A DNA stretch of 27,357 nt from a virus (lineage: Duplodnaviria; Caudoviricetes), in IMG/VR virus record IMGVR_UViG_3300017653_000009, positions 1-27,357 of that record; one strand, written 5' to 3'. Positions 2,219 to 27,357 of this stretch are shown here, one piece after another. The translations under genes and the position numbers were made by a program. The notes under the pieces were generated by a model that saw nothing but the letters and a program-made list of their open reading frames with translations, did no database searches and was not told where the DNA came from. Every line of letters starts with the position of its first letter. Position 1 is the first letter of the stretch.

Positions 2219-2490
2219 GCGGATATGAAGCGAAGCATGAACTGATTCAGCGCGTACTGAAAGACTGCTCTCTCAAGATCGATGTTGTAGGGCTAAGCGA
2301 GGACAATCGATTTGTAGGTATGTTCAATGGTCAACTGCATGAGTTTGTTGTATCCCCGTATTGTAATCAAAAATATGATTGGCACAGTGCTTCAGGGAGC
2401 GTAGTAAACCGGGGCCCCATTGAACGGGTACCCGAAGATTATAGATTCGTGGATGAAGTCATCGGCGGGCAGATGGAGTTGATGATATGA
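2215..2490 (+). CDS. Hypothetical phage protein
   Basis: AAGGAG RBS; ATGA overlap with the upstream gene. Confidence 0.7.
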   Translation: MSGYEAKHELIQRVLKDCSLKIDVVGLSEDNRFVGMFNGQLHEFVVSPYCNQKYDWHSASGSVVNRGPIERVPEDYRFVDEVIGGQMELMI

Positions 2491-2651
2491 ACTGGCGATC
2501 CGCAACTTACCTGCAGCTAATGGATATTGCGTACATCGATACAGAGGCGCCAATTGAATGGCGAATTGCTGCAGGAGCCGAATTGAAGCGCAGGGCAAGA
2601 GTGAATCTTCTTCTAGGGGGCAACTTCATTGAGCATTCATCAACTCCATAA
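2487..2651 (+). CDS. Small hypothetical phage protein (54 aa, MNWRSATYLQLMDIAY...)
   Basis: ATGA overlap with the upstream stop and a GGAG RBS. Not in the ORF track. Confidence 0.6.
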   Translation: MNWRSATYLQLMDIAYIDTEAPIEWRIAAGAELKRRARVNLLLGGNFIEHSSTP

Positions 2652-24583: not shown

Positions 24584-25009
24584 ATGGCTTATGTTTCTAC
24601 TTTTGTTTATAGTGATAGTGTACAAACAGAGTTAGGTCCTAATGGTCCTAAACAAACGATTGTAACTCCTTTAATTCACTTCTCACCAATGTTTATACCC
24701 GGTAATTTCTCTTTCGCAGTTACTTACGGAATAATGGATTTAAGAGAAAACTCAAACCATGAATTACAGTTTATTTTCAAAAGTCCTGTTAATGAGCAAT
24801 TATTAATAGATAGTGGTAATGTACAAATCAACGTTGGTCCAAACCTTACAGGAAACAATATGCCAGAACATGCGCAAGGAGTTATTGTTCAGATGGATTT
24901 TAGAAATATTGCTTTCCGGGTCGAGGGGATATATAAATCAGAAGTGATTCTGAATGGAAAATCATTAGGGGAGTTTCCTATACCAGTTTATGGTAAGGAG
25001 AAACTGTGA
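24584..25009 (+). CDS. Moron protein, beta-sandwich (DUF6941-like)
   Basis: GGGGG/AGGT RBS; AT-rich; C-terminal FRNIAF..EGIYKSEVILNG..LGEFPI pattern. Family assigned by eye. Confidence 0.7.
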   Translation: MAYVSTFVYSDSVQTELGPNGPKQTIVTPLIHFSPMFIPGNFSFAVTYGIMDLRENSNHELQFIFKSPVNEQLLIDSGNVQINVGPNLTGNNMPEHAQGVIVQMDFRNIAFRVEGIYKSEVILNGKSLGEFPIPVYGKEKL

Positions 25010-26037
25010 ACTCATCAGTTGAAATAATTGGTAGTAGTATAATTAAAGTTACAATCCCTTCATCGGACCCTGCACCACAAAATGATATAAAAGAGGTAGA
25101 ATATTCGAGAACTACTAATATATCAGCGCTGAAATCGATAATGATTGTAAGTGCTGTGTCGGGTGCACTTTTATTTGGCTCTGCAGGAGTACAAGCTCAA
25201 ACTGTGAGTAATACAATTACAACATCACAGATCAGTAATAATGTTTCTGGTCATGGCCTTGAAGGGCGTTTGGCTCAGATTAATAGTAGAGGCATAAATT
25301 CAGGAAACTCTCGAAACCGAGAAAATATGCTTGATCAAAAGGGTGTAGTTCAATTCTTTTCTGGGGATCCATTTGCCCCATCTGAAATAATGGATTTTAG
25401 CTATCAAAAAAAGTTCGAGGATGCAGACTCAAGTAAGATCAAGTCGCTTGAACTTTCAGATGCTGTTTCTGTTTCTATTTTCGCGGAATCTGCATACTAT
25501 AAATTAAGCGTGAGCAGTGAAAAGTTGGAAAAAAGGGGGCACAGACTAATGAATCATTCTCCTACTTTTATTCGGCTCTATGCTGATGACTTAACTGATA
25601 CAGTCACCGTTAACCCAATAAAGTTAGGAATCACTGCTGCATTCGCTGCAGTCACTGCTTGGCTTGGTCCTGATGTTCTAGGGCTCATAAATGGTTTGAT
25701 TATATTTGCTCTTGTTGACCTAATCTTAGGAATGATCCCCGGTAATATTAAGCCAGGAGCCGAGAAAGATCAAAAAATACAAGCAAAATTTTTGACGTTT
25801 ATAACGAATTTCTTAAGTATCATTGCGTTCATTAAAGGTAGTGAATATTTAAGGGGCATTTCGGCTGCGCAAGACATTACAACTTTTATAGCAACTGGCC
25901 TTTACTATATAATAATTGCATGGATTTTTTCAACATATACATGGAGAATTGTTGGCTTCGTTGCCAGATCAAATAAAACTAAAGTGCCAAAGATACTTCG
26001 TGACTTGTTCGATAAAGACGTGACTAAAGGTAGTTGA
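25006..26037 (+). CDS. Moron membrane protein with N-terminal hydrophobic helix and C-terminal holin-like multi-TM domain
   Basis: AAGGAG RBS with GTGA overlap; WLG..LINGLIIFALVDLILG resembles phage holin 4-type domains; about 4 C-terminal TM segments. Confidence 0.7.
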   Translation: MNSSVEIIGSSIIKVTIPSSDPAPQNDIKEVEYSRTTNISALKSIMIVSAVSGALLFGSAGVQAQTVSNTITTSQISNNVSGHGLEGRLAQINSRGINSGNSRNRENMLDQKGVVQFFSGDPFAPSEIMDFSYQKKFEDADSSKIKSLELSDAVSVSIFAESAYYKLSVSSEKLEKRGHRLMNHSPTFIRLYADDLTDTVTVNPIKLGITAAFAAVTAWLGPDVLGLINGLIIFALVDLILGMIPGNIKPGAEKDQKIQAKFLTFITNFLSIIAFIKGSEYLRGISAAQDITTFIATGLYYIIIAWIFSTYTWRIVGFVARSNKTKVPKILRDLFDKDVTKGS

Positions 26038-26083: not shown

Positions 26084-26127
26084 TTGAAATAAGAACGCTA
26101 GTTCTTATATAATGAGAACAAATGCTC
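26084..26127 (+). promoter_or_regulatory. SigA promoter with two LexA (DinR) boxes
   Basis: TTGAAA-18-TATAAT; GAAC-GCTA-GTTC (26093-26104) and GAAC-AAAT-GCTC (26116-26127) fit the Firmicute GAAC-N4-GTTC box. Confidence 0.85.
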
Positions 26128-26146: not shown

Positions 26147-26416
26147 ATGTTAAAAAATAATAATCGGTTGGACGATAATGCTCGGAGAGTTTTACGAATG
26201 CTGTTTGACTTATATAGAGCCGAAGCGAATAGGCTTGATGTTGATCGGCTTATGAGATTATCAGGAAAGTCAAAAGATATGATAATGCCGGCGATCGAGC
26301 AATTGCTCGAGAAAAGGTATATTATTTGGGATCGTGAGAGCGGAGTAATGCAGGTCTTAATGGTTGATGTTCCAGTCTACCGCTGCCTAAAGAATGCTGG
26401 AGTCATTGCAGTATAA
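26147..26416 (+). CDS. Putative SOS-inducible winged-helix protein
   Basis: AAGGAG RBS; RLMRLSGKS..IEQLLEKRYIIWD wHTH-like pattern. Start is 26138 or 26147. Confidence 0.7.
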   Translation: MLKNNNRLDDNARRVLRMLFDLYRAEANRLDVDRLMRLSGKSKDMIMPAIEQLLEKRYIIWDRESGVMQVLMVDVPVYRCLKNAGVIAV

Positions 26417-26493
26417 TGGGAGCTGCTTATCTTGTTGTCAAAGAACAATCTATGTAAAGGCCAGTGTTGCAACACCAGCTCGTAGCGGAAATT

Positions 26494-26558
26494 CCGCGAC
26501 GCTCTCCTAACAAGGGGAGCGTTTCGGCCTGCCCCGCAGCAGGCCATCGTCAGGCGGG
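26494..26558 (-). ncRNA. Type I hammerhead ribozyme
   Basis: Minus strand reads CCGC-CUGACGA-U-GGCCUGC(ugcggg)GCAGGCC-GAAA-CGCUCCCCU(uguu)AGGAGAGCG-UC-GCGG. Full core and three stems; predicted cleavage between 26498 and 26497. Confidence 0.88.
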
Positions 26559-26645
26559 TTATAGTTTAGCGATGGTCACGATTAGGGCAACAACACTGAT
26601 AATCAGAGCAGTCAGGCTAAACCAATACGCAAGTTTCAGTTTCAT
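26559..26645 (-). CDS. Small hydrophobic peptide (28 aa, MKLKLAYWFSLTALIISVVALIVTIAKL), type I toxin-like
   Basis: AGGGTGAAGGA RBS before ATG; single TM helix flanked by Lys. Confidence 0.68.
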   Translation of the reverse strand: MKLKLAYWFSLTALIISVVALIVTIAKL

Positions 26646-26670
26646 ATCCTTCACCCTTTCGTGGTATAAT
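26641..26670 (+). promoter_or_regulatory. Antisense promoter (extended -10 TGGTATAAT)
   Basis: TTCATA-18-TATAAT with TG extension, pointing into the 3' end of the 26750-26863 peptide gene. Confidence 0.55.
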
Positions 26671-26749
26671 GTTGAGAAAGAAGAAGCGCACCCTTTGGAT
26701 TTATCGTGTGTGGGAGAGAAGCCACCTTGCGGTGACTTCCCCTTTGCGA

Positions 26750-26863
26750 TTACCACCCTCTGATAAGGGCGACGGCTGAGATGATCACGCTAGTGAGTGC
26801 AATCATTAGCATGATGTCGTCTCTCAGTTCGTCATCGCGTTTCTTCTTTCTCTTTTGTCTCAT
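26750..26863 (-). CDS. Small basic-then-hydrophobic peptide (37 aa, MRQKRKKKRDDELRDDIMLMIALTSVIISAVALIRGW), holin-like toxin candidate
   Basis: Perfect AAGGAGGTGA RBS, consensus promoter upstream. Not in the ORF track. Confidence 0.75.
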   Translation of the reverse strand: MRQKRKKKRDDELRDDIMLMIALTSVIISAVALIRGW

Positions 26864-26885
26864 TTTCTCACCTCCTTATATTCTT

Positions 26886-26927
26886 ATTATACAACGAAAA
26901 TAGTTGAATGTCAACGAAAATAGTTGA
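26886..26927 (-). promoter_or_regulatory. Consensus SigA promoter overlapped by two identical operators
   Basis: Minus strand TTGACA-17-TATAAT with TG (26914-26886). CAACGAAAATAGTTGA occurs at 26892-26907 and 26912-26927, each a CAAC-N7-GTTG palindrome. Confidence 0.88.
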
Positions 26928-26970
26928 TTGTTTTTGTATTTTGGTGTATATTTTTATTGAGGTGATATGC

Positions 26971-27183
26971 GTGCTTAAACTAAAACTGGATAAATTAATG
27001 TCCGAAAAGCAGTACAACACACGTCAGCTTAGTGAATTGACTGGAATCAGATGGAACACTATTGATGATATGGCTAAGAATAAAGCGAAACACTGGTCTG
27101 TGGAAAATCTCGAGAAGATTATGCAGGTACTTGAGATCAAGGACATTAATTTATTGATTGAAAATGAAGGCTCAGAGGAATAA
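26971..27183 (+). CDS. Xre/Cro-like HTH transcriptional regulator
   Basis: GAGGTGA RBS, GTG start; LKLDKLM..RQLSELTGIRWNTI..LEKIMQVL..LL pattern; divergent from the operator pair. Confidence 0.88.
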   Translation: MLKLKLDKLMSEKQYNTRQLSELTGIRWNTIDDMAKNKAKHWSVENLEKIMQVLEIKDINLLIENEGSEE

Positions 27184-27203: not shown

Positions 27204-27247
27204 TTGAATGAAGAACATACGTTTGGTTATAATAAGAACAAATGTTC
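27204..27247 (+). promoter_or_regulatory. SigA promoter with two LexA boxes
   Basis: TTGAAT-18-TATAAT; GAAC-ATAC-GTTT (27213-27224) and GAAC-AAAT-GTTC (27236-27247). Confidence 0.85.
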
Positions 27248-27265: not shown

Positions 27266-27357
27266 ATGCAGGAGTACGTTGGCAAAGTCGTGCAGCTTAT
27301 CTATATCGACCGGAAGCGCGAGGTCAGCATAAGGGATGTGCGAGTCATATCGGTTAA
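27266..27357 (+). CDS. SOS-inducible small protein (YolD/WYL-like), truncated by the window edge
   Basis: GAGGCGGTG RBS; MQEYVGKVVQLIYIDRKREVSIRDVRVISV... Confidence 0.65.
   Translation, partial: MQEYVGKVVQLIYIDRKREVSIRDVRVISV

Follow-up and report, generated by a model that had tools for sequence, protein, structure and literature searches.

What is the role of a small prophage cassette in which an Xre repressor gene, two short membrane peptides, an opposing promoter and a hammerhead ribozyme are packed together? The stretch analysed here (the window) is a virus record of 27,357 nt in which the ORF list, as we interpret it, shows genes for terminase, capsid and tail, followed by an amidase gene (PF01510) and then by a cargo region. 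The cassette is arranged in the order xre, divergent promoter with two operators, ORF1, hairpin, opposing extended -10, ORF2 and type I hammerhead, and is flanked by two ORFs provided with GAAC-N4-GTTC boxes (26093-26127 and 27236-27247), which we take to be LexA boxes. The parts listed in a preliminary description of this DNA were all recovered at the positions given there.

The explanation considered best, with a probability of about 0.55, is that the cassette represents an unnamed, type I toxin-antitoxin-like prophage family, endowed with a dedicated autorepressor. The sequences establish its anatomy and recurrence, the coupling of operator and repressor helix, a conserved antisense -10, covarying RNA helices over ORF1, purifying selection acting on ORF2, and the fact that repressor and ribozyme can be exchanged. 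The combination of repressor, TM peptides, antisense RNA and hammerhead was found in no literature description, among titles and initial parts of abstracts from sources mostly other than subscription journals.

The repressor gene and the control region comprise the following elements.

26971 to 27183, plus strand: xre, encoding a 70-aa HTH_26 repressor from a GTG start (Pfam PF13443, E 5.8e-12; alignment A1)
26924 to 26952, plus strand: candidate xre promoter, TTGATT-17-TATATT, its -35 overlapping operator O1 (9/12 consensus match, putative function)
26912 to 26926, no strand assigned: operator O1, an imperfect CAAC-N7-GTTG palindrome that shares bases with the -35 of the peptide promoter (operator tracks Xre helix type)
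26892 to 26906, no strand assigned: operator O2, the same as O1, filling the -35/-10 spacer (sequence identity)
26886 to 26914, minus strand: peptide-operon promoter, TTGACA-17-TATAAT (12/12 consensus match)

The likely start of xre is GTG 26971, where a Shine-Dalgarno sequence (SD), GAGGTG, is present and the homologues begin; a start at 26908, giving 91 aa, is probably too far upstream. A homologue search gave 42 matches, including the window's own, and the named ones are Paenibacillus. The two operators share an identical 15-nt core, CAACGAAAATAGTTG, and over 20 nt are identical at 19 positions, so that the perfect-consensus promoter overlapped by two identical operators, reported from a first inspection, is confirmed. 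Across loci, the spacer ends with CGTA in 16/16 cases with the Xre helix R-Y-P-T and in 0/31 with R-W-N. This coupling argues for the type I-like reading; R-Y-P-T being a single clade (98/93) and R-W-N-S, with an altered operator centre, another one (99/94), the independent coupling events are few, which counts against it. Binding of Xre to the repeats, which had been presumed, is very likely, judging from the joint change of operator and recognition helix. All three types of ORF1 (see below) are combined with either helix, which means that the operator goes with the repressor rather than the cargo. Natural Xre variants and the matching operator changes would provide a small recognition code. 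Geometry and coupling are compatible, as far as sequence tells, with an autoregulating repressor placed over a strong cargo promoter, of the Reg576 or Aca type. The score of Xre as a CapH-like protein is weak (capH E 0.0012), and no CapP peptidase was detected among the neighbours scanned, the record ending 174 nt past xre.

The distribution of the cassette was evaluated on the loci of alignment A1, i.e. 34 from genomes, 18 viral and 30 more from 401 genomes, 82 plus the window. Removal of duplicates, of 2 loci that were too short and of 5 without the helix motif left 52 classified loci, in 47 of which the peptide-operon promoter matches the consensus at 10 or more of 12 positions. A scan of viral contigs with the single Xre protein confirmed no locus, whereas the alignment-based search did. 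Both TM ORFs and the antisense -10 are found in 29 of the 47 distinct Xre-homologue loci: the components, whose co-occurrence elsewhere had been left to be looked for, recur together, in favour of the type I-like reading. By ORF1, the 47 loci comprise 19 of type A (basic N-terminus followed by a TM segment, as in the window), 12 of type B (TM segment and basic C-terminus), 12 with a soluble 70-aa ORF and 4 other or not called, L140 and L134 looking misclassified by eye.

The soluble ORF, helical and marked by the motif K-R-E-H, takes the place of the TM ORF1 in L125, L139, L143, L144, L149, L151, L161 and L162. In several loci it is followed, in the same or opposite orientation, by a partner with an LDYAV motif, and the two may possibly form an unnamed toxin-antitoxin pair; searches gave no family. 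Extra soluble ORFs, pointing to internal uptake of cargo, are located between the antisense promoter and ORF2 in L141, L172, L346 and L370. The GenBank annotation of phage Harrison (L123) reports ORF2 as hypothetical, omits ORF1 and starts the regulator too early. A DUF3800-VIII RNA (68.2 bits) is found soon after the cassette terminator in L128 (1338-1403, minus strand).

The peptide region of the window contains the following elements.

26750 to 26863, minus strand: ORF1, 37 aa, basic N-terminus and one predicted TM helix, toxin candidate (SD 26877-26869)
26712 to 26742, no strand assigned: GC-rich intergenic hairpin past the ORF1 stop (position conserved, sequence variable)
26559 to 26645, minus strand: ORF2, 28 aa, one predicted TM helix (SD 26660-26648)

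The preliminary description had noted two TM peptides separated by a hairpin, and both ORFs, both motifs quoted there and the hairpin (26742-26712) are present. Each peptide reaches a hydropathy of 2.4 over 19 residues and is preceded by its own SD. Type I toxins are small and hydrophobic, having a single TM segment and a charged end; these traits are shared by the present products of 37 and 28 aa and kept in homologues; ORF1 is 73% identical to the corresponding peptide of L343. Pooled over 23 pairs, ORF1 has pS 0.26 and pN 0.14 (pN/pS about 0.5); for ORF2, pS 0.74 and pN 0.195 (pN/pS about 0.26) were obtained from 10 homologue pairs, none including the window or the L343 ORF2. In a comparison of the same 8 locus pairs, ORF1 has changed little at synonymous sites and ORF2 much (pooled pS 0.26 vs 0.74; Wilcoxon p 0.008, the pairs not being independent). 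Taken with the pN of ORF2, this difference suggests that ORF1 is under RNA constraint and that ORF2 is selected as a protein.

Neither peptide matched a Pfam or NCBIfam family above cut-off, and no Rfam family naming the peptides or RNAs was retrieved; in the ESM Atlas, ORF1 and the soluble 70-aa ORF gave only unnamed clusters under 0.9. Against type I toxin families (BsrG, TxpA, YonT, Fst, Hol-Tox and others in Pfam, NCBIfam and Rfam) no peptide scored above cut-off, the best match being Hol_Tox with E 0.033 for 1 of 30 peptides, and this failure to match a toxin family counts against the type I-like reading. ORF2 as an obligate protein antidote of ORF1 is not favoured, each being found alone (L169; L307, L319, L346). 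A control in which ORF1 translation switches the ORF2 SD on and off was also discarded, as the predicted accessibility hardly changes (means of 0.44, 0.39 and 0.45 in 15 homologues; 0.37, 0.43 and 0.37 in the window).

The antisense strand and the fold over ORF1 are defined by three features.

26641 to 26670, plus strand: antisense promoter TTCATA-18-TATAAT with TG extension (TGGTATAAT, 26662-26670), overlapping SD and start of ORF2 (consensus match, conservation)
26674 to 26860, plus strand: predicted antisense RNA of about 190 nt, spanning the hairpin and ORF1 to about codon 2, both ends putative (fold z -6.3, 0/200 shuffles)
26837 to 26852, no strand assigned: arm of a long-range 16-bp stem within ORF1 codons 4-9, its partner being 26674-26689 (inverted repeat; cognate-pairing test)

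The opposing extended -10, already recognised at first inspection, is conserved in other loci. The pattern TGnTA(T/A)A(A/C)T faces ORF1 in 16/16 type A loci, with TG kept and the following base variable, and in 12 of them its distance to the chosen ORF2 start is 16 nt; in type B (11/11 loci) it reads TGWTAAGAT or TGTTATGAT. The predicted RNA covers ORF1 only and not ORF2, a point previously overlooked, as was the conserved fold that includes ORF1. Its ends are predicted to pair and to be followed by a U-run read from Lys codons; such a run (at least 5 U in 8 nt) lies past the long-range stem on the antisense strand in 12/16 type A loci. In all 11 type B loci the antisense strand folds, by eye, into a hairpin ending at a U-run derived from Lys-Lys-Gly-Thr codons, and this too argues for the type I-like reading.

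In type A loci the long-range stem is specific for its cognate partner (-23.4 vs -15.4 kcal/mol for swapped duplexes, 0/20000 permutations); the same test fails in type B (18164/20000), which counts against the type I-like reading. The consensus fold of the mRNA strand shows two-sided changes in 16/27 pairs, contradicting the idea that the stem is a feature of the antisense RNA alone. Consensus folding of the alignment gave -21.5 kcal/mol for the mRNA and -7.7 kcal/mol for the antisense strand, with mRNA-side wobbles in the inner helices, while the wobbles of the outer stem point to the antisense strand (14 A.C vs 3 G.T, not independent). Both strands may be structured, according to these models. 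The cognate-specific stem, the covarying mRNA fold and the conserved synonymous sites of ORF1 favour the type I-like reading; the conflict over the folded strand weighs against it. Positions +12 to +27 of ORF1 are predicted to be paired (unpaired 0.07 in the window) and covary, but in the window the ORF1 SD is predicted to be mostly unpaired. The antisense element is retained in loci whose ORF1 stops short of it (L198, L367, L383) or which have no TM ORF1 (L346), a further point against the type I-like reading.

If that reading is correct, Xre bound at O1 and O2 would keep both divergent promoters low, thus providing autorepression, i.e. the part played by HicB in hicAB operons and one beyond the reach of an RNA antitoxin. 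In residual mRNA, ORF1 codons 4-9 would be concealed within the long-range stem, and the antisense RNA would pair with the whole of ORF1, leading to RNase III-type decay or to a translation block. Loss of the antisense RNA or titration of Xre, following prophage loss or shut-off by an infecting phage, would allow the peptides to be made and the membrane to be damaged. ORF1 would be the predicted membrane toxin and ORF2 a second, weaker or co-acting peptide, controlled only via the shared mRNA, as is partly the case for yoyJ in yonT-yoyJ/SR6.

The latter, located in the B. subtilis prophage SPbeta, is the closest described system, going by the accessible parts of the reports on it: a tandem membrane-peptide operon has one antisense RNA, which starts between the two ORFs and overlaps the first (PMC5848175, PMC6562991). 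SR6 is 100 nt long and also pairs with the yoyJ RBS, whereas the RNA predicted here spans all of ORF1 and misses ORF2. No sequence match between that system and the cassette is shown, and a dedicated divergent repressor and a ribozyme are not described in those parts of the reports. The Bacillus type I toxins are prophage TM peptides of less than 60 aa with overlapping antisense RNAs (PMC6562991, accessible parts), which supports the type I-like reading; bsrG/SR4, txpA/RatA and bsrE/SR5 have the structured mRNA and the convergent antisense RNA that are predicted for the cassette, and differ in having a single peptide and an overlap, at the 3' side, of 100-140 bp. The Rfam BsrG model found no match in the window, and a BsrG-family RNA (119.8 bits) adjoins the cassette in L167, directly downstream of xre (2348-2590, plus strand), again in favour of the type I-like reading.

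The same promoter and operators may be read differently. As the main rival, which we regard as unlikely though deserving serious attention, the cassette would be an accessory operon for a burst at phage entry, coding for non-lethal peptides: the strong promoter would fire in a repressor-free cell, the peptides would alter the membrane, for superinfection exclusion or for anti-defence, and the burst would be ended by Xre and the antisense RNA. The perfect promoter and the operators on both divergent promoters fit such a scheme; conversely, a 12/12 promoter firing in a repressor-free cell would be risky for a real toxin, and a repressor is no help for post-segregational killing, both being arguments against the type I-like reading. 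The same holds for the cargo, since the Xre promoter drives RadC (in L124 only) or the soluble 70-aa ORF (12/47 loci), and strings of small unknown ORFs stand behind it in some sister loci; retention of the antisense element without a TM ORF1 in L346 is also in line with an entry burst. Furthermore, a divergent repressor, a strong promoter, varied cargo and a hammerhead form a common layout among the 51 hammerhead matches described below, and hammerheads flank ardA, an anti-restriction gene (PMC3088659, accessible parts). The Reg576 establishment regulon, as outlined in the accessible parts of PMC6294495, and acr-aca operons follow this logic, with a small autoregulated repressor, strong promoters, variable small-gene operons and a burst at entry. 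Their cargo, however, is anti-restriction or anti-CRISPR, and antisense RNA, TM peptides and ribozyme are not mentioned there. In addition, no anti-defence or exclusion family was recognised among the window's peptides by profile searches, toxin mRNAs typically show full antisense overlap and a folded coding region, neither of which is mentioned for Reg576 operons in the accessible parts of PMC6294495 and PMC8708921, and hicAB operons carry the same hammerhead and tail.

The 3' portion of the cassette contains the ribozyme and its tail.

26494 to 26557, minus strand: type I hammerhead, beginning 2 nt past the ORF2 stop (stem/core search; predicted cut after C26498, GUC)
26460 to 26479, minus strand: conserved 8-bp hairpin 3' of the ribozyme (13-sequence alignment)
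26436 to 26448, minus strand: boxA-like word UUGUUCUUUGACA (consensus match, putative function)

The window contains the type I core (CUGANGA, GAAA, UH; three helices, stem I open), with P1 of 4 bp, P2 of 7-8 bp, P3 of 5 bp and one extra U after A9. An extra U at this position is tolerated in a viroid hammerhead; here it was found in 108/216 cores, being partly built into the search pattern. Since dinucleotide shuffles of the window gave a hammerhead at its stem lengths in 0/300 cases (1/300 at looser settings), a chance occurrence is not a likely explanation. A pseudoknot of 4 pairs is predicted in the window between loop II (GCGG, 26537-26534) and the tail (CCGC, 26488-26485); runs of at least 4 Watson-Crick pairs between loop II and tail occur in 133/216 complete cores, as compared to a mean of 62.5 and a maximum of 81 when partners are swapped. 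Rfam searches, at gathering threshold and at E up to 10, revealed nothing relevant in the window, and the Rfam hammerhead families were not reported at gathering threshold in the window, L129, L173, L035 and L058.

A scan of viral sequences with a core-derived pattern gave at least 122 loci (about 530 estimated). Among 121 distinct cores, 100 have the complete type I structure and 59 are no more than 15 nt from an ORF stop. A stricter family pattern was found in 53/401 genomes (family of G001), with 67 matches listed and 0 in the reversed control, a loose pattern being non-specific, with controls equally frequent. Upstream DNA was read by eye for 51 of the 67 matches. Nine hammerheads come after cassette peptides (L338, L341, L343, L346, L361, L367, L368, L370, L383) and four after Pfam-confirmed hicA-hicB (L359, L362, L373, L375), the latter an argument for the type I-like reading; the remaining ones follow phage early-type operons, small-ORF operons with a divergent regulator or an empty promoter (L347). 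HicAB is a type II system: its antitoxin is a protein doubling as a repressor, its toxin an RNase. It has no homology to the cassette peptides, and the hairpin-boxA tail is clearest in L359. The prophage pseudoknot hammerheads described by Perreault in 2011 (PMC3088659) are alike, in the accessible parts of that paper, in consensus core, pseudoknot and location beside single genes or short variable gene blocks; the present ones differ in the extra U after A9, the hairpin-boxA tail of a subset and the lack of an Rfam match. Dataset S1 of that paper may already list members of this family.

The family also occupies a recurring place in temperate-phage early operons, by eye, after a small Xre-like gene and an ORF of about 90 aa (L349, L351, L353, L356, L364, L369, L376, L379, L380, L385). 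In G330:C40 a hicAB-hammerhead unit (L362) and an Xre two-peptide cassette (L336) are about 2 kb apart. The hammerhead at the ORF2 stop of L148 (G002:C36:43525-43600) has an insertion in the stem II region, which may inactivate or remodel the ribozyme.

Within 1.5-2 kb scanned, a hammerhead is present in 8/47 Xre loci and in 7/29 two-peptide cassettes, window included. The preliminary description had joined the parts into a triple-locked switch. Taken literally, the hammerhead would be a third safety destabilising the toxin mRNA, possibly regulated by ribosomes at the ORF2 stop or by the tail hairpin. Such an integrated lock is improbable. It is true that P1 begins 1-2 nt past the ORF2 stop in 4 Xre loci and likewise in L343, that the P1 3' strand would prefer a competing GCGGA/UCCGC hairpin in the energy model (-36.8 vs -26.8 kcal/mol, pseudoknot not included), so that cleavage could be conditional, and that engineered 3'-UTR ribozymes can alter expression (PMC6765202, accessible parts). 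The hammerhead is missing, however, in 22/29 two-peptide cassettes, and half of the 8 loci with a hammerhead have it at a distance of 193-1148 nt downstream. Proximity to a stop is general to the family, as noted above. Moreover, it stands 3' of both ORFs, which cleavage would spare, and in a second viral scan a TM-like small ORF preceded only 7/120 hammerheads, 4 of the 7 being cassette peptides by eye. As the ribozyme also follows HicAB and early operons, and the peptide core is found behind unrelated repressors, the parts of the cassette are swappable and a third lock unlikely. The hammerhead is likely an optional 3'-end former, with its cut predicted just past ORF2; such a cut would spare both ORFs, give their message a structured 3' end and set the hairpin-boxA tail free. 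A 2019 review, in its accessible parts, calls it largely elusive what self-cleaving ribozymes do in bacteria (PMC6765202).

The tail hairpin shows two-sided changes in 7/8 pairs (0/500 shuffles; 13 of 15 tails aligned), and the boxA-like word matches the B. subtilis consensus AUGAUCUUUGAAA at 10/13 positions; in rrn leaders a small hairpin stands immediately upstream of boxA (PMC13753749, accessible parts for both). Hairpin and word follow 15/236 hammerheads, window included, and suggest, from their sequence, read-through and not termination. The transcript had been said to end in the hammerhead: the ribozyme is there, but the end probably is not, no minus-strand terminator having been found past it in the window and the hairpin and boxA-like word lying beyond. 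A terminator-like hairpin was detected within 330 nt in 13/20 hammerhead-free cassettes vs 1/6 with a hammerhead by a loose scan having no control, and in 3/26 cassettes by a strict one; the former difference also speaks against the triple lock. Near-identical cassettes ending either in a hammerhead at the ORF2 stop (L129, L148, L173) or in a terminator-like hairpin (L127, L147) constitute a natural test of the function of such ribozymes in bacteria. The gene next to the tail in the window is convergent, an arrangement that this reading does not account for.

The exchange of parts extends to the repressor, a fact missed in the preliminary description. L343 aligns closely with the window from the -10 through both peptides to the hammerhead, yet its operators differ and its divergent gene is of ribbon-helix-helix (RHH) type, so that at the sequence level the repressor is exchangeable around a nearly identical core. 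The layout recurs in L035, where the regulator is of RHH type and the peptides are unrelated, and, by eye, in L198 and L214 together with other HTH genes; the RHH regulators score against the HicB RHH model PF05534 with E 8.5e-5 (L035) and 0.0013 (L343). With regulator, ORF1 type and ribozyme all shuffled, and with an ORF1 whose pN/pS is only about 0.5 and whose basic tract doubles as RNA structure, the cassette might be a mosaic whose parts move independently and serve no common function, its peptides perhaps harmless by-products of an RNA element. This is the least probable of the explanations. Against it speak the order, the spacing and the antisense -10, all of them conserved across Paenibacillaceae and also in L035 behind its RHH regulator, the low pN/pS of ORF2, and the SD, start and TM character conserved in both ORFs.

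A bolder form of the type I-like reading can be put forward tentatively, as a possible one. The cassette would be an instance of a widespread, undescribed Bacillota prophage chassis with three plug-in parts, i.e. a divergent repressor with its own operator, the two-peptide core and a hammerhead with hairpin-boxA tail, combining type I toxin-antitoxin function with protein autorepression, ribozyme-made mRNA ends and phage sensing. The lysine codons of the core would double as the end of the antisense RNA, the hammerhead would free the message while polymerase reads on, and killing or exclusion would follow once an incoming phage removes repressor or RNA. The cassette would also add an unnamed peptide and antisense family missed by annotation, and would be an example of a type I system that has taken on a repressor from elsewhere.

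A few observations concern the flanks of the cassette in the window. An 89-aa winged-HTH-like ORF (26147-26416, plus strand; PF13730, E 0.013) is convergent with it and has two LexA-like boxes at its promoter (26093-26104 and 26116-26127); transcription past the boxA-like word would be antisense to this ORF. Further upstream, after the amidase gene, a cargo pair (24584-26037, plus strand) codes for a 141-aa DUF6941-like protein (E 3.3e-5, under cut-off; phrog_5881) and a 343-aa protein with a hydrophobic C-terminal half and no family match. On the other side, a truncated ORF (27266-27357, plus strand) stands behind the LexA-like box at 27236-27247, and ORFs resembling it adjoin the regulator in L339 and L343, by eye, beside a gene for a LexA DNA-binding domain.
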